A stretch of DNA of 64,000 nucleotides, taken from contig CM000432.1 of the NCBI GenBank assembly GCA_000165345.1, positions 352,001 to 416,000 of the forward strand, written 5' to 3'. A program made the position numbers and the translations under genes. Of the stretch, positions 23,151-52,375 are shown piece by piece (the stretch's first letter is position 1; every line of letters starts with the position of its first letter). The notes beneath the pieces were generated by a model. It ran no database searches. It had not been told where the DNA came from and saw only the letters and a program-made list of their open reading frames with translations.

Positions 23151-24713
23151 TTAATGAATTAGTTGTAACATAATATTGTATTCTTCTTGTTCTTTCTTAG
23201 TATCTTGAATTAAATTATCAACAAAATTATCCATAAATTGAATATATTTACTTATACTTGAAGGTATTGTATAAGTTGTTGTATTTGATTTAATATCTTT
23301 TTGACAAACATTATTGTCATAATCATTTCTAATACTAGTAAGTGTAGGAACAGTTTTTGGATTAAAATTAAAATTTTGACTTGTATCAATAGGAATACAA
23401 AGTCTACCAGTAGAATGATGAATACAAAAAGGAGCTTTTAAAAGATGTCCAAGATCTTTACTGACATTAATATCTAATCTTGGATAACTATAAGCAAATA
23501 CAATTTCTTTAAGAAGAGTAAGATGGGATTTATCGGATGATTTTTGTAAAGTATTAGAAAGAAAATCCCAGAATTCAAGACATGTAAAATCAGATGTTTT
23601 TTGAATCCAATTTTGAACAGTTTGATATACTTTAGTATCTTCAGAAAGATGATTTAATACTTTTTCAATATGAATAGAATTGTGATCAAAAATTTGTTGG
23701 TTTTCTAGTATTTGATCAAAATATTGCATGCATATATTAAAACATCTATCTATAAATGGATGAGATTTAATCCCATTTTGATTATTTGAAGTCTTTAAAT
23801 TAACTTTCTTTTTTCTATTTTCATTACCAGTAACTAATGTTAAATAATCAATAATAGCAGTTCTTGCTTCAGAAGGTAGAAGTCTGGCTTTAGTATCACA
23901 AACCCAACAATGTACTCCTCTTCTTCCAGAATAAAGCCAAAGTATATGTTTAAAGCCAAAATCTTGTCTTAAAGAAGTATCTATAAGACGAATTGCTACA
24001 GTTACATAAAGCCAACATTTTTCACAAATAGTTTTCTCTTGACAACATGTTCGAATATCATCATAATCATTCATATCAATATCAAAGACTAATTCTCTTT
24101 GTACAGGCTTAAATCCAAGAGGGGAGATTTCTTTTTCAGAAATGGGGATATTGTAGATTGCTCCAATATCAAATTTATGTGGAGTTCTTGCAACAATTTC
24201 TTGTTTTAGTTGATCAATTGTTTTGAAATGTTGCCATCTGAGATATATTTCATCCTGATCAATTTCAGATTTAATAGTCATAGAGAATTCTCTGTTTTGA
24301 ATTAAGTTGTTTTGTCTTGAATTATCTAATTGGATAATAATATAAGAAATAAAGTTAAGTTATGTTTTATTCAATATAATTGAGTTAGGATGATTCATAG
24401 TAATGAATTAAATCATTAATTTATGAATGCATTGTTCCTAGAAATTTTACTTAGCTTACCTCCTATAGTTCCTACATTATATGAAAGCCATTTTCCCAAT
24501 ATATTGAATGGATAAATTTTATCTAAACAAAATGAATTATGAATATTCAAATGATTATACAGCCTTATTTCTCAATTTCTAATTTATATTTTAAGGCTGT
24601 TAATTATATAATTTAAACTTACTATAAAAGAACTTCAGATCAGCTTTGTCAATAAAGCTGTCATCAGCAAATATTAAAGTTTCATCTTTTTCAAAGTTAT
24701 CTTCAAGTACCAT
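23151..24713 (-). CDS. PRI1: DNA primase small (catalytic) subunit, at least 3 exons (exon1 about 24713-24623; exon2 about 24522-24460; exon3 about 24289-23151)
   Basis: The track ORF (23151-24281) carries the catalytic core ...ELVFDIDMNDYDDIRTCC...LWLYSGRRGVHCWVCD. Upstream on the same strand, exon 1 codes MVLEDNFEKDETLIFADDSFIDKADLKFFY followed by GTAAGT, and exon 2 codes NKIYPFNILGKWLSYNVGTIG followed by GTAAGC. These reproduce the conserved primase N-terminus (yeast EYYYKSLYPFKHIFNWLNHS; human LKLYYRRLFPYSQYYRWLNYG). The exon2-exon3 junction is placed at an AG 8 nt before the track ATG and is uncertain. Confidence 0.75.
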
Positions 24714-25016
24714 TTTAATGAATAAATTATTAATTTATTTTTTAATAATTTTGTTATTGTCTTTGATATAAAATAATAATAATTGAATTAGGCGTACAAG
24801 TATCACTTTCTCAAAAATATTCACCTTTTTGTATATTATTTGAAAAAGAGAGATAATGAGAAAGAAAGAGAGAGAGAAATAAAGATCTGTAGAAAAGGGA
24901 AGGGAGATAAATAGATTAAATATTTATTATCGTATTTTTTATTTCCTTCCTTTTTTTTTTTTTTTACCTCACAAATTTGTGAGATCTTAATTAACATTTA
25001 TTTAAACAAAAAATGG

Positions 25017-25038
25017 GTTTGGCGCCAAAACGGGTACC
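25017..25038. promoter_or_regulatory. E2F palindrome TTTGGCGCCAAAACG plus GGTACCG
   Basis: About 300 bp upstream of the corrected primase start and about 170 bp upstream of the 25206 gene. Its reverse complement, CGGTACCCGTTTTGGCGCCAAA, matches 8873-8897. Confidence 0.6.
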
Positions 25039-25205
25039 GAAAATTATTTTGAAATTTTTATATTGGTTATTATTTGCAGGTTAAATTTCCAAGTTAGGTG
25101 AGCAAGTAGATAGGATAAAAAAAAAGAGATCATTTTTGGTTTATTATAGTATAACTAAATAATATAAGAGTGGTGTGTGTAGAGATTTTTGATTAGTTTG
25201 AATAA

Positions 25206-25583
25206 ATGGTAGAAATATATGCATCTGAAAGCTCGGAAGTTGGTAAGCAAGTGAATTGGAATTATATTAATAAGGATAGTCTTTCAAATATAAACGAATT
25301 AGATGTTACGGTATTGAAGGAGATATATAGTGAGATAATTGATTTTGCAAATAAGCTTGCAGAATCGAATAGAATAATGGAGGATTATAAAGATGATGAG
25401 GATATTGTGGATGCAATTGATGAGAATGAGGGAATAATTAAGAGAAAAAAGGAGATAATTGAATTAATTGAGAGTAGATTTAAGCAATTGAATAGGGAAG
25501 ATTTAATAAACGAATCAAAACTTGAAATAGATGGTAAAGATTGCAAAAATAATGAAGATAATAATATGGAAGAATATTTGTAA
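25206..25583 (+). CDS. Hypothetical small acidic protein (125 aa)
   Basis: ORF sharing the E2F-bearing bidirectional promoter with the primase gene. No family recognised. Confidence 0.5.
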   Translation: MVEIYASESSEVGKQVNWNYINKDSLSNINELDVTVLKEIYSEIIDFANKLAESNRIMEDYKDDEDIVDAIDENEGIIKRKKEIIELIESRFKQLNREDLINESKLEIDGKDCKNNEDNNMEEYL

Positions 25584-25745
25584 GAAGAATGAATATTCTC
25601 ATATATTTATCTTAAGTTTTATAACATATTGATATATTTATTTTTTCTTAAAGAAAAAAAAATAATGAAGAAGTTATCGTACTAATTTTTAAACAAAATT
25701 TAGGATATTTCCAATGATAACTAATTTTCTTAAAAAAGTATTAAT

Positions 25746-26504
25746 CTATAGGTAAAATATAACATAATGTAGAATAACTATAAGAATATTTAATGGATTT
25801 ATTTGAGGCCAAAGAGTTTTAACAAAATAAATTCTTGTATTGTGACAAACTTGATAAATTAAAAAATCAGAAAGACGTGTTTCCCCTGAAGTTCTTATCA
25901 ATATATTAGGAAATGGTATTTCAGGATTATATATAAAAGATTTAAATTTTTCATCAGAAAGAGTAATATCTTGAATTTGGTTAATATTATTAGAATTAAC
26001 ATTTTTATAATTTTCAAGATACTTTTTTGATGCCATTTCTAATTCTGCTGTCCATGAATAAGCACAACAAATATTAAGAACAATTCCATTATTTTCTTTT
26101 GTTTTAAGTTCTAAATCTTTTAAAGTATCTAATAATTCTTTTGGAAGCATTTCAATTTTCCCAGAAATAACAACTTTAGAATTCTTTTCATTTAACCAAT
26201 TTCCTTCTTTTAAAATATAATCCTTAATTACATTAAATGTATCATCTACATTTTCTTGATTTCTAGAAAAATTCTCCATTGAAAAAACAAACATTGAAAT
26301 ATATTTTACTTTTAGCTTTATAAATAGTGGTAATATTTTCTTTATTAAAAGTGCACCTTGTTTATGTCCTTCTAACTGTGATATTCCCATTGCTTTTGCA
26401 TATCTCCTATTTCCATCTAATATTATTGCTACATGATTGATCTTAAATATGCTTAAAAAACGAGTTAACACTATTTCTAATACTCTTTTTATTAATGATA
26501 TCAT
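25746..26504 (-). CDS. cis-Prenyltransferase (undecaprenyl/dehydrodolichyl diphosphate synthase family)
   Basis: HVAIILDGNRRYAK...GH..G... and ...FVFSMENFSRNQENV motifs of the UPP-synthase family. Confidence 0.85.
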   Translation of the reverse strand: MISLIKRVLEIVLTRFLSIFKINHVAIILDGNRRYAKAMGISQLEGHKQGALLIKKILPLFIKLKVKYISMFVFSMENFSRNQENVDDTFNVIKDYILKEGNWLNEKNSKVVISGKIEMLPKELLDTLKDLELKTKENNGIVLNICCAYSWTAELEMASKKYLENYKNVNSNNINQIQDITLSDEKFKSFIYNPEIPFPNILIRTSGETRLSDFLIYQVCHNTRIYFVKTLWPQINPLNILIVILHYVIFYL

Positions 26505-26806
26505 TTTAATTAATTTCTTGATAATTTATTAAGATGTTTAATTCACTTCACTATTACATAATATTACTTTACTATAAAAAGATAATAAAAGAAAGGAAAA
26601 AGAATAAATAAACATTTATATTATTTGTTTTACCTCCCCCTCAAATCCTCGACTTGTTAAAAAAAATATATATATATATATATATATATACAATTTTTTT
26701 TTTTTAAATTAATACCATCTACTATCTCAAATATAATAAACTATTGCATTATTGACATAAATAATCTGATAAAGTCAGATGCCCGCGCGCGGCACAGCGC
26801 ATGTAT

Positions 26807-27371
26807 TTAATATAAAGAAAATGTTGATTTTCCACCTGGAGGATTATGTACTTTAACATTTGTTTTAAAAGAATTACCAGTAGAAGTTTTACCTAAAGAA
26901 TTATTATCAACATTTTTTACTTCACTGGTTTCAGAGTTATTTTGATTTACATTAAAACTATCATTTTCAATATTAAGATTATTATTTGTTGCATGTAAAT
27001 TTGTTATTTGTTGTTTATTAGTATTTGTTTCATTGTTATTAGTATTAGAGGAATTGCATGTATCTGAAAAGGCGCCTAAATTTGTGATTATTTAAATAAT
27101 GTTGAAATAAAATAATTTGTTTAAAACTTACTGAATCCAAGTCCAAGGGAAGATGAGCCACCAGGTGGATGGTGGATTCTTGTACTTGGTTTACTTCTAA
27201 AGAATTGATTATCTTGAGCGTCTTTTTATTATTATAAAGTTTTATTTTTCAAAAGTAATATTTTATAGAAAATATAAATATATTAATTTATTAATTTCAG
27301 TAAAGTTTATTCGTAATTTAAAAATCAGTTAGATTAATACCAAATAATTGTAATATATTGAACTAACCCAT
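26807..27371 (-). CDS. HN1/Jupiter-like small protein, predicted 3 exons (27371-27368 ATGG; 27221-27132; 27075-26807), about 120 aa
   Basis: No long ORF exists here. Minus-strand exon 2 codes DAQDNQFFRSKPSTRIHHPPGGSSSLGLGF, ended by GTAAGT. Exon 3 begins after ...AATTTAG and codes AFSDTC...KVHNPPGGKSTFSLY then stop. The two PPGG(S/K)S-hydrophobic motifs are the hallmark of HN1/JPT proteins. The 4-nt first exon (ATG+G, donor GTTAGT, acceptor AAAAAG) is inferred from phase. Confidence 0.55.
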
Positions 27372-27591
27372 TATTTATTTGTTTTAGTTAGATTCTTTTT
27401 TTTTTTTTTTAATATTATCAACTTTAAATCACTTTTTGAATGAAATTCTAAGAATCTGTTTGAGTATTATTAATAATACAAAAAATAAAGAAAATTAAAT
27501 TATATAAAATGATGATTGAAGAAACAATTATATTTTACCCCTTACCTATTTAATTTATTAATATTTAAAATAAATCTCAATAATATATATA

Positions 27592-27623
<32 letters not shown>

Positions 27624-27704
27624 AATTAATTCCCATGTAATTTTTCCCTCCACTAGAATTTATTTAAAAATTAATATATTCAATTTTATTACTATCCCCA
27701 CGCA

Positions 27705-27723
27705 GTGGCGCCAAAAAACCCGC
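27705..27723. promoter_or_regulatory. E2F-like GTGGCGCCAAAAAACCCGC with adjacent C-box ATCCCCACGC
   Basis: Lies between the divergent HN1-like gene and BRX1. Confidence 0.45.
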
Positions 27724-28393
27724 TTTAGTTTGAATATTTATAATTATATATATATAAATATATTATACTATTAAAAGACAAATAATGATAAGTAACATCA
27801 ATAACTGCCAAAAATTGATAATTGAAAAATATTTACTAATATAGTAAAAATATTGATAATAGTAGGAAATACGTATATAGATATTATTATTAATATTTAT
27901 TTAAAAAAAAATTAATATTAAATAACTTTGACAGACGAGTTATTATCTGTGTATGTCAAAACACTATAAGAATATTTGTTAAAAAAAAAAAAGAATTATA
28001 TTAATGTACTAATCTAAGATTTTACTAGACTTTTTTTTTAAAAAAAGGAAATAAACAACAGTATTCAAGGTCAAGGGTTTTTTTTTTTTTTTTACTTTTA
28101 AAGAGATTAAGGAAGGTATTTGTTTTTATGTAAGTAATATACTGTAGATATATACTTTTGAATGCAACAGGTTAAAAAGATTTAAAGGTGAAAAAATAAG
28201 ATTTCAAATTTTATACAAGGTAAATAAAGACAAGTTATACTTACATATATAAATGTATATGTACGTATAATTGCAACTATAATCATATTTTCACGTGAAT
28301 TTGGTCAAATAATAATCTTTAAGATAATTAATATTGCAAATATTAAATATTAACAATTTAATAAAAAGTAATACAATAATTTATTAGTAAGGT

Positions 28394-29455
28394 ATGCCAT
28401 CTAAAGACAATAATACAAATATGTCATCATCTTCATCATCCAGAATTGCTAATGCAAGTGAAGATAATGAAATAAAAATGGATATTGAGGAAGGTCATAT
28501 AACTTCTAATAATAATAATAATAATATTAATACCGATCCATATATGATGAAGGGTGCAGAATATCTCAACAAAGAATCAAGATGGAAAAATAAACAAAGA
28601 GTATTAGTATTATCAACAAGAGGAATTAATTTTAGACATCGTCATTTAATGGAAGATATTAAAAAGTTATTACCACATCATAAATCTGAGGTAAAATGGG
28701 AAAAGAAACAACCATTTTCTGAAATCTCTGAAATGAGTGAATTACGTTCTTGTAATAATATTATATTATTAGAAGCAAGAAGACATGAAGAGTTATATAT
28801 GTGGGTAGCAAAATGTCCAAATGGTCCTAGTATAAAATTCCAAATATTAAATATACATACTTTAGGTGAATTAAGACTTGCAGGAAATTCACTTTTAGGT
28901 TCAAGACCATTATTATCTTTTGATTCTGCATTTGAATCTGATAATTATGTTCATAATATTAATTTTTCTCAAGAACAAAAACATTTGAAATTACCATTAA
29001 AATTAATTAAAGATTTATTTATTCAGGTGTTTGGTACTCCAAGATATCATCCAAAAAGTAAACCATTCCATGATCATGTTATTAGTTTTAATTTTCTAGA
29101 TGGTAAGATTTGGTTTAGACATTATCAAATTGCTCCTACAACAGAAAGAGATCATAATAATGTTGATAAGCAGGTATTAATTGAAATTGGTCCAAGGTTT
29201 GTATTGGAGCCAATACTAATATTGGATGGTACTTTTTCTGGTCAAGTTTTATATAGAAATCCTGATTATAAATCACCTACTTTACTTAGAAATATTATTA
29301 AACAAGGATATTCTTCATCATATTTACAAAGAGTACAAAGTAAACAGAAAAGATCAGACTATAAGGATGATTTGGATTCAAGTTTGATGAATGTACCTGA
29401 GAAGAAGATGCAAATATTAAGAAGTGACAATGTTGATGATTTTCTATTAGAGTAG
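28394..29455 (+). CDS. BRX1: Ribosome biogenesis protein BRX1 (Brix domain)
   Basis: KQRVLVLSTRGINFRHRHLMEDI...CNNIILLEARRHEELYMWVAKCPNGPSIKF...GSRPLLSFD matches the BRX1 Brix domain. Confidence 0.88.
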   Translation: MPSKDNNTNMSSSSSSRIANASEDNEIKMDIEEGHITSNNNNNNINTDPYMMKGAEYLNKESRWKNKQRVLVLSTRGINFRHRHLMEDIKKLLPHHKSEVKWEKKQPFSEISEMSELRSCNNIILLEARRHEELYMWVAKCPNGPSIKFQILNIHTLGELRLAGNSLLGSRPLLSFDSAFESDNYVHNINFSQEQKHLKLPLKLIKDLFIQVFGTPRYHPKSKPFHDHVISFNFLDGKIWFRHYQIAPTTERDHNNVDKQVLIEIGPRFVLEPILILDGTFSGQVLYRNPDYKSPTLLRNIIKQGYSSSYLQRVQSKQKRSDYKDDLDSSLMNVPEKKMQILRSDNVDDFLLE

Positions 29456-30531
29456 ATATATCAAATAGAGTATGAAATGGAAGAATAATCACTAATATTT
29501 AGTGTATTTAAATCACTTGAGGATGATTTTTCTTCTTTTTTTTTTTCTCTCAAGTACCAGTATAATATACTGAAGATATTATTATTGTTATTATTAATTT
29601 ACATTGATAATCAAAGATAATTAATAACTAATATGGAAGATTATTGGAATTATGAAAAATAGTTGTATTAAAATGATTGTTATTATTATCATTATTTTGC
29701 TAATTATTATCAAATTTTATAATAAATAAAGAATTAAATGTGTATTAACCGAAAGAATCTTTAATACATTAAATTAATAATTTAAAAATTTAATAGGTAT
29801 AAATATATGAATATAACATGGAAATAACAAAGCAAAACAAAGGAAAATCAAACAAAATAACAGAAAGAAATGAAAAATCGTATCCAGGCTATCAATGAGT
29901 CGCAATGTAGCAGACATACACGACTAACTTTTTAAGTTGGTTGTTTATTAGAATATTTATTCTAATATATAAACTATAGGGAAAGTCCCCATGTGAGAGT
30001 AAGAATTCTCTATATGGCTTTAGTTATATAAGAATATACTTACTAATCTAGAGGATCATCATTAATTTGGAGTATCTTTATTTATTTAGATTCTTTAATG
30101 TGAGGTACCTTTCTTATCTATCCTCTTTATTGGATGGATAAAGATAGTGATACTGATATTATAGTGAGAGATTTCTCTTACTATGGAATCTTATATAATT
30201 GATACTGGCAGTCTCATTATTATTGAATGAGTGTAAAATGTGATCGTTAAGTTAATAGCGACTGGTATCTTTTTAAGTAGGATACAACAGAATGGGGCTT
30301 ACACTTGATTTGCTTGGTAATTTTACTTTGATATCCCAATGTTACTATTTTCTTTTTTTTTTTTCTCCTCCCTCTTGTTCTACCTTTATGTAAGTTTAAA
30401 TAGTAGTAATAAATAGTAGATATTAAAGTAATTAAAGATAGAATTTGGAATATTAAAAAGAAAGAGAAATGAAAGTATATATTATAATATAATGGACAAA
30501 ATATACAAATTATATTAATATACAAGTTAAA

Positions 30532-45562: not shown

Positions 45563-48500
45563 ATGATTACTTCCGAGGGTAATCACAATAATTCAATTAA
45601 TTCAGAATCCCTACAAAATGGGAACCTTAACCAAACAGATTCAGTAATGCAAGGTTTCCCCACAAATTCAAACATAAATTCTGAAGGTATCTCTAATCTG
45701 GGAGAGGGGCTTGACACTTCAAACACTGGAGAAAGTCTTAATAAAAAGCCTAGAATGGATGAGCAAATTGGGATAGGTTTGAGCAATGAAATAACCTCTA
45801 ATTGTTCAAATTTCGATCAGAATAATAACTCACAATATACATCAGCAATAGAAACATCTGCATCAGTAGTGCCAGGATCTATAGAATCTACAAATCAACA
45901 AAATATAAGTACTGTAGATGCCTCTTCATCTTTGGCAGTTTCTTCAAATTCCGGAGTTGATTCAACACAGACTCAAGAAGCTCCCCCAGAGCCTCCCAAG
46001 AAGAGAGGAAGAGGACGTCCAAGAATTAATAGAGAAGCTTTGGCAGCAGCAGCTGCTGCTGCTGCTGCAAATAATGCAGCAAGCAGCACTATCCAAAATA
46101 ATAATATTATTCAGAGAGAACCAAGTACAAGGAGAAAAGGAGCTGGTCTCGGAAGTTTGATAGCAGCGGAGGTAAACTCCAGAAGATCTTTTGCAGATGA
46201 CGATGATGATGATGATGAAGATTTTGAAGATGGAGATTTACGTGCAGATGGTGAGAACACTGATAATGATGATGGTGAAGAGTTACCTCAAAGATTTGTA
46301 TTAACTCCAATTGTTGAGAAGTTTCTTAAAAGACGTCCTCAAATGAAGCATAAAGAGAAGGAAGGCGCTGAGCACGATAAAGCAAAAAACGCACATTCAA
46401 CTGGAGATACAGTAGTAGCTGGAGGTGCTGAAGAGAGAGATTCAGCCTCACCATCAATCAAAAGAAGAGTATTACACACCAATACAAGCCAGAGGCGCAT
46501 TCCAAGAGGAAAGATTCCCTATGAATACCTTGTAAAATATCATCATCAGAGCTATTCTCAATGCAAATGGATAAGTGAGGACGATATAGATAACGATCCT
46601 GATCCAAAAGTCAGAATAAAATATCTCAGGTATATACAGAGACTAGAACAAAGAGGTGTTGAGGGGATAGATGCTACCGCATATATTGAAGATGTCCCAG
46701 AATTGCAATATATTGATGGAGATATTGAGAGAATTGTTGATTGTACAGACGTTTTCAGATCATTATATCCAATGAAAGCAGCAGAGATTGGTAGAAATGA
46801 ATGGTACATCTATTGTCTAAAGATTATTGACGCTTTGGTATGCTTTGATAGGAAAGGGGTAAAGTATGGTATTCCATTTTTGCGTCCTGTAGACCCGAAT
46901 ATGGATGGGGCTTCTGATTATTATTCAGTGATTTCTCGTCCGATGGATTTTACTACAGTACAGACAAAGCTTTATTTACGTATATATTCTCAACCTCAAG
47001 AATTTTGGAGTGATGTTCAACAGATCTTTACGAATTGCTTCCATTATAACTCTGTAGATAGTGATATCTATGTTCAGGGGAAGTTACTAAAAGCTCTTTT
47101 TGATAAGTTATATGGAGAATGGGCTTTACTCTCCAGACAAACTCAGGAGGATCTGGTTAAACAGAAGAGTGAAGAATCTCCAAAAGAATGGCTTGATGAT
47201 CAGACAGTTACTATAGAAACTGCAATCCAACATGTAACATTCAGAGATTTACTTGCCTTACCTAAGAGACCAATTATGTACTTTGCAAAATGGAAACATC
47301 TTTCATTTGCTGATAATACTTGGGAACACGAGGTCGATATTACAGATAGTAGTAAGATTCTCCAGTTCCATCGTTTCGTTAGAGTTCCAGAATATATCAC
47401 AACAGCTCATAATGGGCCAGCAGCCATAGCTTATGACCTTTATAAGCGAATGATTTCTGAAACTTATACCTATATTAGACATACATTTTCATGGATGAAT
47501 AACCAATTTGGAATGAAACTAATAGCTCCTCAGGCACCAGCCTATATTACTCCAAATAGTGGAGGCGGAAATAACCAAGATTCTGATGATTCTGATGATG
47601 ATAATCATGTTCCATATGCTACAAAGAAGAAATCTAAGAATAGATATTCTATTAGAACATATGTACCAACAACATTCTCCAATCTCCCACAGTTAACTAG
47701 TGCAATTTCTATTTATGGCCATCACCATAGTAACCACCAACCTCAACAAAATAGAAGTAATTATGGACAAAGACAGCAAAATTATGGAGGCCATCAGAAT
47801 CTACAAAGGCAATTTCCAAGCCAGAATTTGGGTAATTCCTCATCTTCCTCAAATATGGCTCAAATAAACAAGATTATTGATAGCAGCATTTTGGACGAAA
47901 TTAAAGTTAGCTCTGATGGAACCATGAACAAGAATGCCATAGCTGCAACTCAAAAACTATTACAGATGATCACAACAAACAATTCAAATGCAGCTAATGC
48001 CTTGAGTATGGCAATGAATAACCCAGCAGTTGCTGGACTTGTTGGAAAACTTCTACAGAATATAAATCAAAATAACTCGCAAACCCAAGCTAAGAGCGAG
48101 CCGGAAAACGCTCAATCATTATCTACCTCTACTACTGGATGTTCTTCTTCAGCACAAGTTTTACCAAATAACTCTTCCAACACTATGGTTGATAAACTTT
48201 CTGTTTCAAATAGCATTACAAATAATACATGCAGCATAAATAATAACATTGTTCATTCTGGAATAACCTCTGAATCCTCTACATGTTTCAATAATGGCAA
48301 TATGGTTATTGCACCAAACCAAGGAGAAGCTTCAGGCCAACACATAGACTCTGGAAACTATAACACCGAAAGTAACATGCCAATGCAATCTTTCTCAAAC
48401 CACGATCACAAACATGAGCAGTGGGGTGGCTCAAATATTAGGGATAATAATAGTAATAACAATTCAGTAATCAATAGTGATATCTCTACAAATCTATGCA

Positions 48501-51500
48501 AGAATCCAAACCCTGGATTTATGGAGTCTAACTCTCAAATGAAGATAGACAATTTTGACTATAAAATTTCGATTGATCAAATGGGTAACAACACTTCTAA
48601 TAACAATCAAAGTAATCATACAAATTACGTGTCAAATGTGATGGGTGGTAACCACACACACCAAGAAAGTTTGGCGCCAGATTGCGTGGAGGAGAATATA
48701 AATAGAGGAGAAGCATATATAATAAGAGATGATAGCTTAGTAGGAAATCCAGGCGCTGATAATTCGGGAGTTGGGATAAGTAGAGAAGGAATTTTAAGCT
48801 TTGGACAAGGTGGTGCAATCGATCAGGGGGAAGACATGATTATAAACCAGAAGGAGAATTATAATATGGTGTCGAGTACAATGACTGACCATCACGATGG
48901 AAATGGTTGTGACAGTATGACAAAGACAATTAATGATACAGATTTGTTTTTCAATGTGAATACGGATAATCCAGATGTAATTAAGTGTATGCCTCCAACT
49001 GATGACTCAAATGTTCCATTATGCGATGGAGAAGTTAAGCTTAGCAATGAGAGTTTGGAGTTGATGGTTTTCAAAAATATTGAGATACCCTCCAGTATGG
49101 AGCTTTATGATAAACTAGAGTTAGAGGAATTCTGTGGGATAGTGTCTCTGGAGAATGACTATCAATCTGATGGGAACGAAGAAATTCTCTCATATAGAAT
49201 TCTGGATAATGTACAAGACTTTTGCGATGGTATGGTTTATAAGGAAGATACTGGGAATGTAACAAAAGTCGATGATACTAATGCTTTAATTCAAGCAAAA
49301 GCTGAAGGAGTCTCTGTGGTGGGAGATATGTCTTCAAGTGTCGATCAAGCACAAGTTAAGATTGATGAAAATGAAAAAGATTTGAAAAACGTATCAGAGC
49401 TCAAAGATGAAACAAATGGTGAGAATATTGTAACTGAAAATACAAACCATCCAATGGGTCTTGCTAGTTTGCTTGCAAATAATAAGATTGCAGAACTTTA
49501 CTGCAACCAGAAACGCCCTCCCCCGCCTCCTCCAGGAGTTTCCCGACATTATCCAGTCTCCCCAATTTTCAAAAATGGATACCAACTTTTTGATTACCAA
49601 TTAGCAGGTCTAAACTGGCTTCTACAACTTTGGTCAGAAGGAAGAAATGGTATATTGGCAGACGAAATGGGTTTGGGAAAGACAATGCAAACAATGTCAT
49701 TCGTTTGGCATTTAGTTTACAAGGAGAAACTTAGGGGTCCTTTTCTGGTTGTTGCTCCACTTTCTACTCTAGATCACTGGAAACGAACTTTTGAAGATTG
49801 GACTGATCTAAATGTGGTTTCATATTATGATGAGGGTGGTAGAAATGGACGAGATTTGCTTCGTCATTATGAGTTTTACCATCAATGCCTTCAATTTGAT
49901 ATGAGAGGAAGGGGAAGAAGTAGTAGCTATAATAGTTTTGGTGGGAATATTAAACATTATGGCTATTCTAACGAACCTCGTCTAGTTCAGACTCAACATT
50001 ATAAGTTCCATGTTTTACTTACTTCATATGAAATTCTCCTTGCAGACGCTGATATTTTATGCACAATGCCCTGGCAGTTTGTAATTATAGACGAAGCTCA
50101 CAGACTAAAAAATAGAGGCGCCAAAACTCTACAAGTCTTTAAGAGTATTGCATGCAGACATATTCTTTTACTTTCCGGAACTCCTGTCCAAAATAACACA
50201 GAGGAGCTTTGGCCTCTACTTAATTATATTGAGCCTATTAAATTCGCAAGTATTGAGGCCTTTACTCAAGAATTTGGAGAACTTCAAACAAGTGGTCAGG
50301 TCTCTGCTCTACACGAACTTTTACGCCCACATCTACTCAGAAGAGTCAAAGAAGACGTTATGAAGGAAATTCCTCCTTTAGAGGAGACAATTATTGATGT
50401 TGAACTTACTACTGCTCAGAAAGCTTATTATAGAGCTATCTTCGAGAGAAACCGTGCTTTCTTGTGCAAAAATGTGGGATTAGGCGGGAAAAGGTCAGGA
50501 AGCAATGCACCAATACCCTCTTTAATGAATGTTGAAGTAGAGTTGAGGAAATGTTGTAATCATCCTTTCCAGGTTGTTGGAGTAGAAGAGAGAGAAGTTG
50601 CTTTATGTAAGACTTCAGAAGAAAGGTATAAGAAAATGATAGAATTGAGTGGAAAGATGGTATTAATGGGTAAACTTTTACCAAAGCTTAAAGCAGAAGG
50701 ACATAGAGTGCTAATATTTAGTCAATTTATTCAAACTTTGACTTTATTAGAGGAGTTAGTGGAACATCATGGATGGGGATATGAAAGACTTGATGGTAGT
50801 ATTCGTGGTACTGACAGGAATGCAGCAATTACAAGATTTAATGCAGAAGACTCTGACAAATTTGTATTTTTACTTTCAACTAGAGCTGGAGGTTTAGGAA
50901 TCAATTTAACATCTGCCGACACTGTAATTATTTTTGATTCTGATTGGAACCCACAAAATGATGTTCAAGCCTGTGCTAGAGCGCATAGAATTGGACAAAC
51001 AAGAGATGTTAAAGTTTATAGATTGATAACAGCAAGAACATATGAAGCTGAAATGTTCGAAAGAGCTGGTAGGAAATTAGGACTGAATACTGCAGTGTTT
51101 CATAAAGGAGCATTTAGAGAGGAGAATAATTCTAATACTGTCAATGGTATTGGTACAAGTGGTGAGCCAACAAAACAAGAAATTGAAGATTTGCTTAAAC
51201 ATGGAGCTTATTATCTATTAGAAGGTAGTGAGGCTTCAAGGCAATTCCAAGAAAGTGATATAGATGAGATTTTGAGTAAAAATTCTCGTCTTGTTAGATA
51301 TCAATTAAGTGGAAAGAATTCTTCATTTAGTAAAACAAGCTTTAGAAGTGATAATGCACTTCCTGATTTGGATGTTAATGACCCAGATTTTTGGAAGAAA
51401 GTATTAGGAGATAGCAGTGTTTCATCATTCCTAGTCCAGCTACAAAGTGGAAGTGCTATTAGGGATGATGAAAGTAGGGAAAAGTTTATTCAGGATCTTG

Positions 51501-52375
51501 CTGATGCAGTTGATGGTGCAGCAGCTTTAGATAGTTTGGATCCACTAATTGAAGCTTTGGTCCAAGTTACAAATATGAGAGAGTTTTCTGAGCTACAGCG
51601 TCAAAAGGCTGAAGATTTACTTGCTAATGTTCAGGATATTGTTAAGACTTTGCAGCCAAATAATGAGAATATTGATGAAAATGATGAAGATAACTTGGAG
51701 ACTGATGGTAGAAGTAAGTCCCGTAAAAAATCAAGAAGAGCTACCAGAGCTAAAGAGTTTACAATTGATAACTATGTTCTTGATGAATATATTGATGGGG
51801 AAATGGAAGATTCTATGAATGGTCCAGGAAACCACGTCGATGGAAGAGGTAGGAAATCGAAAGGAAAGAAAGGTGGAGGAAGAAAAAGCAATGCTTCAGC
51901 TTCAGGAAAGTTTAATAATTATGATATTTCTGATGAAGACGATGATGATTTAAATGATGAATCGTTTGAACCTGTTAAACCAACAAAATCTAGAGAGAGA
52001 AAAGGTACTGGGAGAGGGGGAAGAGCTAATTCATCTAAAACTTCTTCAAATAATGCAACAGGAGGTAATAATAGTAGTGGCGAACAAGATGGTAATCAAA
52101 ATTTTGCAGAAACATCAGTAGACGGAACGAATACTCTGTCAAATGGAGCAAGACAATCAAAGAAGAGAAAGTCAACGAACTCTAATAATCTAAATACTGG
52201 AGATGATATACTGGAAGAGAAGGAACAAACTTCCAATAATTCTCCTGCTAATAATACTGTAGCAAAACGAAGAAATAGAAGAGATTCTGCTGCTGCTATG
52301 CTTGCATTACTTACTGCAAAAATTGCAAAAGATGAAGATGAAGATGAAGATGAAGCTGATGAGGATGAATTATAA
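45563..52375 (+). CDS. SNF2-family chromatin-remodeling ATPase with AT-hook, bromodomain and helicase domains (2270 aa)
   Basis: AT-hook KKRGRGRPRI. Bromodomain ...YYSVISRPMDFTTVQTKL...EFWSDVQQIFTNCFHYN. SNF2_N LFDYQLAGLNWLLQLW..GILADEMGLGKTMQT and DEAHRLKN. Helicase_C ...STRAGGLGINLTSADTVIIFDSDWNPQNDVQACARAHRIGQ. Confidence 0.9.
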   Translation: MITSEGNHNNSINSESLQNGNLNQTDSVMQGFPTNSNINSEGISNLGEGLDTSNTGESLNKKPRMDEQIGIGLSNEITSNCSNFDQNNNSQYTSAIETSASVVPGSIESTNQQNISTVDASSSLAVSSNSGVDSTQTQEAPPEPPKKRGRGRPRINREALAAAAAAAAANNAASSTIQNNNIIQREPSTRRKGAGLGSLIAAEVNSRRSFADDDDDDDEDFEDGDLRADGENTDNDDGEELPQRFVLTPIVEKFLKRRPQMKHKEKEGAEHDKAKNAHSTGDTVVAGGAEERDSASPSIKRRVLHTNTSQRRIPRGKIPYEYLVKYHHQSYSQCKWISEDDIDNDPDPKVRIKYLRYIQRLEQRGVEGIDATAYIEDVPELQYIDGDIERIVDCTDVFRSLYPMKAAEIGRNEWYIYCLKIIDALVCFDRKGVKYGIPFLRPVDPNMDGASDYYSVISRPMDFTTVQTKLYLRIYSQPQEFWSDVQQIFTNCFHYNSVDSDIYVQGKLLKALFDKLYGEWALLSRQTQEDLVKQKSEESPKEWLDDQTVTIETAIQHVTFRDLLALPKRPIMYFAKWKHLSFADNTWEHEVDITDSSKILQFHRFVRVPEYITTAHNGPAAIAYDLYKRMISETYTYIRHTFSWMNNQFGMKLIAPQAPAYITPNSGGGNNQDSDDSDDDNHVPYATKKKSKNRYSIRTYVPTTFSNLPQLTSAISIYGHHHSNHQPQQNRSNYGQRQQNYGGHQNLQRQFPSQNLGNSSSSSNMAQINKIIDSSILDEIKVSSDGTMNKNAIAATQKLLQMITTNNSNAANALSMAMNNPAVAGLVGKLLQNINQNNSQTQAKSEPENAQSLSTSTTGCSSSAQVLPNNSSNTMVDKLSVSNSITNNTCSINNNIVHSGITSESSTCFNNGNMVIAPNQGEASGQHIDSGNYNTESNMPMQSFSNHDHKHEQWGGSNIRDNNSNNNSVINSDISTNLCKNPNPGFMESNSQMKIDNFDYKISIDQMGNNTSNNNQSNHTNYVSNVMGGNHTHQESLAPDCVEENINRGEAYIIRDDSLVGNPGADNSGVGISREGILSFGQGGAIDQGEDMIINQKENYNMVSSTMTDHHDGNGCDSMTKTINDTDLFFNVNTDNPDVIKCMPPTDDSNVPLCDGEVKLSNESLELMVFKNIEIPSSMELYDKLELEEFCGIVSLENDYQSDGNEEILSYRILDNVQDFCDGMVYKEDTGNVTKVDDTNALIQAKAEGVSVVGDMSSSVDQAQVKIDENEKDLKNVSELKDETNGENIVTENTNHPMGLASLLANNKIAELYCNQKRPPPPPPGVSRHYPVSPIFKNGYQLFDYQLAGLNWLLQLWSEGRNGILADEMGLGKTMQTMSFVWHLVYKEKLRGPFLVVAPLSTLDHWKRTFEDWTDLNVVSYYDEGGRNGRDLLRHYEFYHQCLQFDMRGRGRSSSYNSFGGNIKHYGYSNEPRLVQTQHYKFHVLLTSYEILLADADILCTMPWQFVIIDEAHRLKNRGAKTLQVFKSIACRHILLLSGTPVQNNTEELWPLLNYIEPIKFASIEAFTQEFGELQTSGQVSALHELLRPHLLRRVKEDVMKEIPPLEETIIDVELTTAQKAYYRAIFERNRAFLCKNVGLGGKRSGSNAPIPSLMNVEVELRKCCNHPFQVVGVEEREVALCKTSEERYKKMIELSGKMVLMGKLLPKLKAEGHRVLIFSQFIQTLTLLEELVEHHGWGYERLDGSIRGTDRNAAITRFNAEDSDKFVFLLSTRAGGLGINLTSADTVIIFDSDWNPQNDVQACARAHRIGQTRDVKVYRLITARTYEAEMFERAGRKLGLNTAVFHKGAFREENNSNTVNGIGTSGEPTKQEIEDLLKHGAYYLLEGSEASRQFQESDIDEILSKNSRLVRYQLSGKNSSFSKTSFRSDNALPDLDVNDPDFWKKVLGDSSVSSFLVQLQSGSAIRDDESREKFIQDLADAVDGAAALDSLDPLIEALVQVTNMREFSELQRQKAEDLLANVQDIVKTLQPNNENIDENDEDNLETDGRSKSRKKSRRATRAKEFTIDNYVLDEYIDGEMEDSMNGPGNHVDGRGRKSKGKKGGGRKSNASASGKFNNYDISDEDDDDLNDESFEPVKPTKSRERKGTGRGGRANSSKTSSNNATGGNNSSGEQDGNQNFAETSVDGTNTLSNGARQSKKRKSTNSNNLNTGDDILEEKEQTSNNSPANNTVAKRRNRRDSAAAMLALLTAKIAKDEDEDEDEADEDEL

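Follow-up and report, generated by a model that had tools for sequence, protein, structure and literature searches.

Gene structure and conservation of the PPGG locus

We analyzed a 64,000-nucleotide (nt) stretch of Cryptosporidium parvum chromosome 4 (contig CM000432.1, forward-strand positions 352,001 to 416,000; hereafter the window), in which positions 26,807 to 27,371 harbor a real and expressed protein-coding gene with three exons. Coordinates are positions of the window, and the gene was read on the minus strand of 26500-27700. Its spliced product has 120 amino acids (MDAQDNQFFRSKPSTRIHHPPGGSSSLGLGFSAF...FKTNVKVHNPPGGKSTFSLY) and includes RIHHPPGGSSSLGLGF and KVHNPPGGKSTFSLY; we refer to the gene as the PPGG gene after its two PPGG(S/K)S motifs. 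The four-nucleotide ATGG is only the coding part of the first exon, which also takes in an unmapped 5' untranslated region, and it lies in an A-rich context (aaataaataATGG). Exons had a GC content of 24-42% and introns of 13-14%. An in-frame TAA at 27228-27226, two codons before the acceptor of exon 2, means that the initiator methionine must come from an upstream exon. In a six-frame translation of the whole window, PPGG occurred at these two sites alone, plus reverse-complement echoes, whereas 200 Markov-1 simulations gave an expectation of 0.04 and PPGG[SK]S appeared in none of them. The motif pair is therefore not a product of chance.

The original prediction, made from the letters of the window, had proposed this three-exon model. 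All of its coordinates and sequences were reproduced exactly and are identical to the deposited C. parvum models, including the ATGG micro-exon with its GTTAGT donor and AAAAAG acceptor, the second intron joining the two segments in compatible phase and the two minus-strand motifs. The claim that the region has no open reading frame (ORF) of 60 amino acids or more also held, as the mechanical ORF list contained none above 38 amino acids within the interval. We consider the gene model almost certainly correct. The gene had also been called unannotated, and here the prediction was mistaken: an exact-sequence look-up found the identical protein, four-nucleotide first coding exon included, in NCBI and UniProt as CPATCC_0018640 / CPHLJ_4g1515, "uncharacterized/hypothetical protein", so that only the function is unnamed. 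At least four C. parvum annotations carry it (QOY42041.1, WKS77344.1, WRK31985.1 and KAL5369041.1), its 90%-identity cluster also contains near-identical annotated products of C. hominis and C. meleagridis, and the annotated gene extent in three C. parvum chromosome-4 assemblies is 565 nt, as for 26807-27371. With the gene structure already public, the structural result is no advance for C. parvum.

Table 1. Coordinates of the PPGG gene and of the conserved blocks that it encodes.
Feature	Positions	Strand	Length	Details
First coding exon	27371-27368	−	4 nt	ATGG; start codon and first base of codon 2
Intron 1	27367-27222	−	146 nt	GTTAGT...AAAAAG; 13% GC
Exon 2	27221-27132	−	90 nt	Residues 2-31 (DAQDNQFFRSKPSTRIHHPPGGSSSLGLGF) and first base of codon 32
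Intron 2	27131-27076	−	56 nt	GTAAGT...TTTAG; 14% GC; phase 1
Exon 3	27075-26807	−	269 nt	Includes the TAA stop; Asn-rich variable linker and C-terminal motif
N-terminal conserved block	27213-27133	−		Residues 5-31, DNQFFRSKPSTRIHHPPGGSSSLGLGF; motif of SPIRAL1-C-terminal type / JPT-N-terminal type
C-terminal conserved block	26866-26810	−		Residues 102-120, KTNVKVHNPPGGKSTFSLY-COOH

The C. parvum locus was compared with its counterparts in C. felis, C. bovis, C. ryanae, the chipmunk genotype and C. ubiquitum. All five were syntenic, with the PPGG gene between the Brix and prenyltransferase genes. The ATGG exon followed by a GT(A/T/G)AGT donor in A-rich context was common to all six species, and exon 2 measured 90 nt in five of them and 93 nt in C. 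felis. The positions and phases of both introns were conserved; their lengths drifted between 79 and 178 nt for intron 1 and between 56 and 118 nt for intron 2. Over the N-terminal 31 codons, C. parvum differed from the chipmunk genotype and from C. ubiquitum by 8 synonymous and 3 non-synonymous changes, and from C. ryanae in a ratio of 10 synonymous to 10 non-synonymous. Over the C-terminal 21 codons, 12 synonymous and 2 non-synonymous changes separated it from C. bovis. Synonymous changes thus exceeded non-synonymous ones in most comparisons, and the motif-coding ends are under purifying selection. Invariant columns were D5, N6, P13, S14, T15, P21, G22, G23, S25 and G30 at the N-terminal end and, in alignment A1, T103, V105, K106, V107, H108, N109, P110, P111, G112, G113 and S115 at the C-terminal end. 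The linker between the end motifs was poorly conserved among species. A metagenomic contig (L009; ENA ERR2355630 k127_82637, 689 nt) proved genomic and Cryptosporidium-like, with the same layout of exon 2, intron 2 and exon 3. Its C-terminal motif reads NPPVGRS and not NPPGGKS; this departure at an otherwise invariant Gly is either genuine or due to a sequencing error.

The start codon can be located by other means as well. An intronless relative on an AT-rich Logan contig (L010) reads through the position of intron 1 (ATGGATGTT / ATGGATGTTGGCGATAACCCATTC, giving MDVGDNPF), and apicomplexan transcript ORFs of Rhytidocystis pertsovi (P0206) and of the TSA set GHVS01 start with MESSDNQFF and MDSSDNQFF. 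All three show the N-terminus M-x-x-x-DN(Q/P)F in one register. Because comparative splice, intronless and transcript evidence agree, the start codon and register are fixed independently of the C. parvum annotation. Two deposited orthologue models depart from this structure and are annotation errors. The C. ryanae model FG386_002288 (L006:1449-2028) takes as its start an ATG within intron 1 and leaves out the ATGG exon at L006:1449; the annotated start MNLSITCL... was rejected, as the conserved aaaATGG with its GTGAGT donor lies 52 nt upstream and splices to MDVSDNPFF. The C. ubiquitum model cubi_01554 (L008:1501-2025) splices ATGG straight to exon 3. We rejected the exon-2-skipped product as a true isoform, since exon 2 is intact and canonically flanked by AAAAAG and GTGAGT. 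The corrected products have 127 amino acids in C. ryanae (MDVSDNPFF...) and 117 in C. ubiquitum (MDAQDNQFF...). Genes with an intron directly after ATGG are reliably detected only by transcript or comparative evidence.

Concerning transcripts of C. parvum itself, the paper describing the CPATCC annotation reports RNA-seq support for 100% of its introns (PMC8744675), which gives both junctions of the PPGG gene indirect support. An exact-protein look-up found no assembled transcripts and matched only four genomic contigs > 1 Mb. The ENA contig carrying P0008 was rejected as cDNA, since it is genomic and still contains intron 2. That the spliced reading frame arose by chance, or was copied between genomes as an artefact of annotation, could appeal to the short ORFs, to the ease with which a four-nucleotide coding exon is invented and to the disagreement of the C. 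ryanae and C. ubiquitum annotations, but it is effectively refuted, and given next to no weight here, by a motif pair far above chance expectation, by synteny, exon/intron structure and a coding-type substitution pattern across six species, by an intronless gene and independent transcriptomes that contain complete homologous ORFs, by the reported RNA-seq support (PMC8744675) and by the intact latent canonical structure that explains both discordant annotations.

In the surroundings of the gene, a divergently transcribed Brix-domain gene is followed by the PPGG gene, a cis-prenyltransferase gene (25746-26504), a TMA17-like gene and a DNA primase gene. A palindromic GC-rich element was found at 26781-26793, which on the minus strand is 13-25 nt past the TAA, in a spacer of otherwise ~20% GC. 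The C. parvum sequence is TGCCGCGCGCGGGCA, the chipmunk genotype has GCCGCGCGCGG and C. ubiquitum GCCGCGCGCGGG; C. felis carries a perfect 20-nt palindrome (CATTGGCGCGCGCGCCAATG) and C. bovis a variant form (GGCGCGGGCGGC). The orthologous elements (in L007, L008, L004 and L005) lie just after the stop codons, in a spacer of 131-302 nt upstream of the cis-prenyltransferase gene. The element looks like an E2F-type GCGCGC box, and it may act in the promoter of the cis-prenyltransferase gene or at the 3' end of the PPGG gene. An Rfam scan of 24500-29500 on both strands found no intron-encoded RNA; a sub-threshold MIR6462 candidate at 24849-24971 on the plus strand (25.8 bits, E=0.24; gathering score 96) was rejected as chance in AT-rich sequence. 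Elsewhere in the window, GC content reached 0.36-0.37 at 46001-52000 as compared with 0.19-0.31 in the rest, which probably reflects a long coding region of higher GC content.

Relationships of the encoded protein

The protein carries an N-terminal module DNQFFxxKPST(K/R)(V/I)HHPPGGxSS and, at its extreme C-terminus, the module KTNVKVHNPPGGKS(S/T)FSLY. AlphaFold2 modeling gave a mean predicted local distance difference test score (pLDDT) of 51, a predicted template modeling score (pTM) of 0.11 and no secondary structure, the outcome to be expected of a disordered microtubule-associated protein (MAP). The pLDDT stayed below 50 for residues 30-95, which correspond to the linker, and the C-terminal motif was the most confident part. 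The protein is thereby predicted to be intrinsically disordered, with two conserved terminal modules on a fast-evolving Asn-rich linker. A sequence-profile search of the PDB returned no solved relative, and its best match, a hemopexin-fold protein at E=0.95, was rejected as chance. Pfam matches of the product and 11 relatives to TSC22, Herpes_UL32 and similar models were likewise discarded as noise.

The original prediction had named the protein HN1/Jupiter-like and had taken the duplicated PPGG motif as defining for HN1/JPT. The comparison used the reference proteins JUPI1_HUMAN, JUPI2_HUMAN and SPR1_ARATH, whose sequences were verified by exact look-up, and profile hidden Markov models (HMMs) controlled by 2000 shuffles per target. 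The Cryptosporidium profile scored JPT1 at 20.5, SPR1 at 20.5 and JPT2 at 12.8 bits (shuffles ≤ 9.5), the ciliate-type profile JPT1 at 37.1, JPT2 at 20.6 and SPR1 at 20.4 bits (shuffles ≤ 11.5), and the apicomplexan-type profile SPR1 at 29.4, JPT1 at 28.3 and JPT2 at 20.9 bits (shuffles ≤ 8.8). With hhalign, the probabilities were 92% for JPT2 (over its last 15 residues), 92% for SPR1 (20 residues) and 64% for JPT1. BLASTP matches were limited to the motifs, with E values of 3e-5 for the JPT2 C-terminus, 5e-5 for the N-terminal motif of JPT1 and 3e-6 for the C-terminal block of SPR1. A PPGG(G/E/S)S motif lies within the first ~30 residues, where residues 14-31 (STRIHHPPGGSSSLGLGF) are identical to residues 17-34 of JPT1 (SSRVLRPPGGGSNFSLGF) at 10 of 18 positions. 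At the other end, NPPGGKS(S/T) stands five residues before the C-terminus, and HNPPGGKSTFSLY-COOH shares 9 of 13 residues with LNPPGGKSSISFY-COOH of JPT2.

The Pfam JUPITER/HN1 model, a failure to match which had been set beforehand as counting against the HN1 assignment, gave no match at E ≤ 10 for the 120-amino-acid product or for 11 myzozoan relatives (PF17054). In the positive control, human JPT1 and JPT2 scored 33.6 and 45.3 bits against the gathering threshold of 27. The internal (M)ASNIFG block of human JPT1 and JPT2 was found neither in C. parvum nor in any Cryptosporidium orthologue, and MASNIFG occurred in 1 of 125 representative family matches. Hence, of the HN1/Jupiter-like label, the profile and hhalign link to JPT1 and JPT2 stood above the shuffles, whereas the assignment to the Pfam family did not stand; and as the similarity to plant SPIRAL1 is as strong, the PPGG motifs are not defining for HN1/JPT alone. 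The relationship to JPT suggested by these alignments is real but motif-based, and no stronger than that to plant SPIRAL1. The protein could still be a true member of the animal HN1/JPT/Jupiter family which, like JPT2, binds the luminal taxane pocket and modulates tubulin acetylation. The resemblance of both ends to JPT2 and JPT1, with the same distance to the C-terminus and a Lys after GG, and the 37 bits given to JPT1 by the ciliate-type profile argue for this. We nevertheless regard it as unlikely in view of the missing PF17054 match and MASNIFG block, of a SPIRAL1 similarity that is equal or slightly higher, and of the names of relatives: among the matches listed, the one named non-alveolate relative is SPIRAL1-like and none is named JPT. 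In addition, even for JPT2 the evidence for binding at the luminal taxane site comes in part from an AlphaFold3 prediction (PMC12773733).

The conserved block of SPIRAL1 (...GNFLTDRPSTKVHAAPGGGSSL...) was recovered in the N-terminal module, where FFRSKPSTRIHHPPGGSSSL of C. parvum and FLTDRPSTKVHAAPGGGSSL of SPR1 are identical at 11 of 20 positions; Rhytidocystis matches the SPR1 block with 73% identity over 22 residues. The size and layout also agree with those of SPIRAL1, a protein of ~12 kDa in which conserved ends flank a variable and unstructured middle, as the C. parvum protein has 120 amino acids and an unconserved linker with pLDDT < 50. SPIRAL1 proteins are reported to carry a direct repeat GG(G/H)(Q/-)SSL(G/D/N/S/H)YLFG at both their N- and C-terminal ends (PMC9959322). 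This repeat was present at neither C. parvum end, and as a regular expression it matched 0 of 125 representative family matches: the N-terminal GGSSSLGLGF keeps GG-x-SSL-xxx-F and not YLFG, and the C-terminal module reads GGKSTFSLY. The two conserved end domains of SPIRAL1 together suffice for plus-end tracking (10.1101/521047). By analogy, the protein might be an autonomous plus-end tracker of the SPIRAL1 type, with an N-terminal module that recognizes growing ends and a C-terminal module that adds affinity. SPR1 is indeed the best pairwise match (E=3e-6), the Rhytidocystis identity is high and the architecture of repeated end motifs around a variable centre is the same. However, the SPR1-like block sits at the opposite end from that in SPR1, the consensus GG(G/H)QSSLxYLFG is unmatched at either end, and the N-terminal GGGQSSLxYLFG repeat of SPR1, essential for its activity as a plus-end-tracking protein, is matched only loosely. 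An autonomous plus-end tracker thus seems rather improbable.

A single-sequence search returned Cryptosporidium orthologues, one ciliate transcript and unnamed environmental proteins. The profile built from these matches gave at least 783 matches at E ≤ 1 in a word-indexed search, and an exhaustive search of 1.84 billion representatives yielded 726 clusters at E ≤ 1e-3 and 158 at E ≤ 1e-10. The PPGG-motif family therefore comprises at least 726 clusters. Its members are mostly 80-250 amino acids long, with an N-terminal ...(T/S)SVKVHHAPGGKSNFSLGW and an extreme C-terminal ...KTSVKVHNPPGGKSNFTLG, and the C. parvum protein belongs to it as a full-length match with both terminal modules, scoring 53 bits with the ciliate-type profile. 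Named members are found in the ciliates Tetrahymena, Stylonychia, Euplotes, Paramecium, Blepharisma and Aristerostoma, in Chromera velia and in the diplonemids Diplonema and Lacrimia. When the apicomplexan-type profile was run against 5.8 billion sequences, Rhytidocystis was retrieved at E=5e-36, Chromera velia at E=4e-15 and a protein named 'Protein SPIRAL1-like 2 [Diplonema papillatum]' by NCBI at E=5e-11. The nearest relatives (Rhytidocystis, related TSA sets and Chromera) share the N-terminal block M-x-x-x-DNQF(F/V)(K/R)x(K/R)PST(K/R)(V/I/L), and by these alignments the Cryptosporidium protein sits in a myzozoan branch with Rhytidocystis and Chromera. Several long family proteins of 700-1840 amino acids (P0181, P0184, P0186, P0191, P0214 and P0274) gave 9-12 separate matches to the PPGG module each, so that arrays of several copies of the motif occur in larger proteins, too.

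The diplonemid proteins of Diplonema ambulator (P0232), Lacrimia lanifica (P0249) and Diplonema papillatum (P0324) have an extended C-terminal block of SPIRAL1 type, SSNAWASN.SQN.GN(V/M)(I/L)(S/T)(D/E)RPS(T/V)R(V/I/L)HAPPGGKSSITF, and match Arabidopsis SPR1 over nearly the full length (E=5e-14 for Lacrimia in a local database of 125 sequences, E=4e-11 for D. papillatum in a pairwise comparison). They bridge plant SPIRAL1 and the protist proteins, which argues against a plant-specific SPIRAL1. SPIRAL1 has been described as plant-specific (10.1101/521047), whereas Cryptosporidium parvum and its relatives in apicomplexans, chromerids, ciliates and diplonemids lie outside land plants.

Finally, the PPGG modules may be short linear motifs of a generic kind or the result of convergence, in a protein whose role is unrelated to microtubules, for example as an adaptor or in ligand binding of the NAADP (nicotinic acid adenine dinucleotide phosphate) type. 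The similarity is indeed restricted to short motifs in disordered, compositionally biased proteins, the alveolate members are all functionally uncharacterized, and JPT2/HN1L is also described as an NAADP-binding protein. Yet the shared features extend beyond PPGG to KPST(K/R)(V/I)H upstream and S-S-(L/F)-x-L downstream, to the placement at the N-terminus and the extreme C-terminus, to the small size and to the variable linker. They recur in animals, plants, alveolates and diplonemids, and both characterized branches bind microtubules (PMC11590752, PMC12773733, 10.1101/521047). We therefore consider convergence very unlikely. The most economical reading of the alignments would be a single ancient PPGG-motif family with lineage-specific branches, and homology of the C. 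parvum protein to the JPT/SPIRAL1 superfamily is, on the profile evidence, quite probable.

Proposed function

The functional proposal draws on the characterized relatives. HN1 and HN1L decorate interphase and spindle microtubules in human cells (PMC11590752). JPT2 binds microtubules directly and was reported in the microtubule lumen, in a taxol-sensitive manner, with the pocket assigned from an AlphaFold3 prediction; its C-terminal 13-mer (LNPPGGKSSISFY) is enough for microtubule localization, for which S186 and S188 are needed (PMC12773733). In the corresponding peptide of C. parvum (HNPPGGKSTFSLY), which ends 5 residues after PPGGKS, the two critical positions are Thr and Ser, and they are Ser and Ser in C. 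felis, C. bovis and C. ryanae. By inference from JPT and SPIRAL1, both PPGG modules would be tubulin-binding short linear motifs, and the protein would most likely decorate parasite microtubules, subpellicular and/or spindle. A single disordered protein would probably bind through both ends, in a bivalent manner, either in the mode reported for JPT2, along the lattice or in the lumen, or in that reported for SPIRAL1, at growing ends.

Gene structure, conservation, purifying selection on the motifs, profile-based family membership and predicted disorder are established by the analysis. Taken together, we favor, with some confidence, the reading of a disordered PPGG protein of the myzozoan branch that is related to JPT and SPIRAL1 and most likely decorates microtubules. 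Microtubule binding by the Cryptosporidium protein, mode included, is drawn by analogy, and we place it slightly above even.

Several observations weigh against this reading. The similarity to JPT and SPIRAL1 is limited to motifs of ~15-30 residues, so that common descent and convergence of short linear motifs are not rigorously separable. No named homologue of Toxoplasma, Plasmodium or Eimeria was present among the 120 listed matches of the apicomplexan-type profile search, and a conserved apicomplexan cytoskeletal role is therefore not implied. In SPR1 the PGGG motif is dispensable for plus-end tracking in vitro (10.1101/521047), and the PPGG core may therefore not be the critical determinant in every member. 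Besides the missing PF17054 match, the tau repeat model (PF00418) gave no match at E ≤ 10 for any member tested, and PF13266 (DUF4057; threshold 23 bits) was not matched by the C. parvum product; the C. bovis orthologue scored 10.7 bits with PF13266, and the ciliate relatives P0024 and P0019 passed at 30.7 and 24.8 bits. The RNA-seq support of the gene comes from the general statement of the annotation paper (PMC8744675), and literature searches for cgd4_1513/1515, CPATCC_0018640, CPHLJ_4g1515 and cmbei_4001513 found no mention of it.

A bolder extension is that SPIRAL1 and JPT/HN1/Jupiter, which the literature treats as an animal family, are two branches of one ancient, eukaryote-wide family of small disordered tubulin-binding proteins, and that the single Cryptosporidium member is an unrecognized microtubule factor in a parasite with a greatly reduced cytoskeleton, possibly luminal at the taxane pocket. 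We offer this tentatively and hold it to be doubtful in its full extent. In the open-access literature we found no paper connecting the SPIRAL1 and JPT families; the automated name 'SPIRAL1-like 2' in Diplonema indicates that annotation pipelines already see part of this link.

What is new is a functional hypothesis, that of a microtubule binder of the JPT/SPIRAL1 type, for a protein labeled uncharacterized in every Cryptosporidium annotation, together with the correction of the C. ryanae and C. ubiquitum models. Moreover, the animal and plant MAPs with PPGG motifs appear to form one family that extends to apicomplexans, chromerids, ciliates and diplonemids, which questions the 'plant-specific' status of SPIRAL1. 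Since drug targets in Cryptosporidium are few and its microtubule cytoskeleton is unusual and minimal, a conserved tubulin-binding factor, if true, would be of moderate practical interest.

Comparison with known systems

The closest sequence relatives outside Myzozoa are the PPGG proteins of ciliates, diplonemids and other protists, all of them uncharacterized. They resemble the C. parvum protein in the N-terminal TSVKVHHAPGGKSNFSLGW and C-terminal KTSVKVHNPPGGKSNFTLG modules and in the size of 80-250 amino acids. Many of them differ in having ≥ 3 motif copies, up to 12 in the long ones, and Gln/Pro-rich linkers.

The repeats of tau, MAP2 and MAP4 offer a more distant parallel. The core of the tau repeat reads ...HHKPGGG..., and what it has in common with the C. 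parvum motif is a His-x-Pro-Gly-Gly core. With only ~4-6 residues involved, this resemblance is an analogy and not membership. The same analogy with tau was drawn in both the SPIRAL1 and the JPT2 literature (10.1101/521047; PMC12773733).

JPT1 (HN1), JPT2 (HN1L) and Drosophila Jupiter are, like the C. parvum protein, small and disordered with PPGG near the N-terminus, and NPPGGKS is followed by exactly five C-terminal residues in JPT2 (...KVLNPPGGKSSISFY), JPT1 (...RRNPPGGKSSLVLG) and C. parvum (...KVHNPPGGKSTFSLY). The C. parvum protein is alveolate and not metazoan, and has neither the MASNIFG block nor the extra internal PPGGK repeats of JPT2. Before PPGG it has a His (KVH/RIH) where JPT has a Leu (RVL/KVL), and its DNQFFxxKPST extension is SPIRAL1-like and not JPT-like.

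With SPIRAL1, for which no Pfam model exists to compare against, the protein shares the size of ~12 kDa, N- and C-terminal modules that repeat each other on either side of a disordered, variable middle part, and a (P)GGG/PPGG core that has been linked to microtubule binding; a diplonemid protein of the same profile family even carries the NCBI name 'SPIRAL1-like 2'. It differs in the position of the SPR1-like block, which is N-terminal in C. parvum and C-terminal in SPR1, in the GG(G/H)QSSLxYLFG repeat, which is only loosely present, and in its end, as SPR1 runs 10 residues past GGGS and the C. parvum protein stops after 5. Judged from these alignments, the C. parvum protein looks like a mosaic, with an N-terminal part that corresponds to the C-terminal block of SPIRAL1 and a C-terminal end that is JPT-like.

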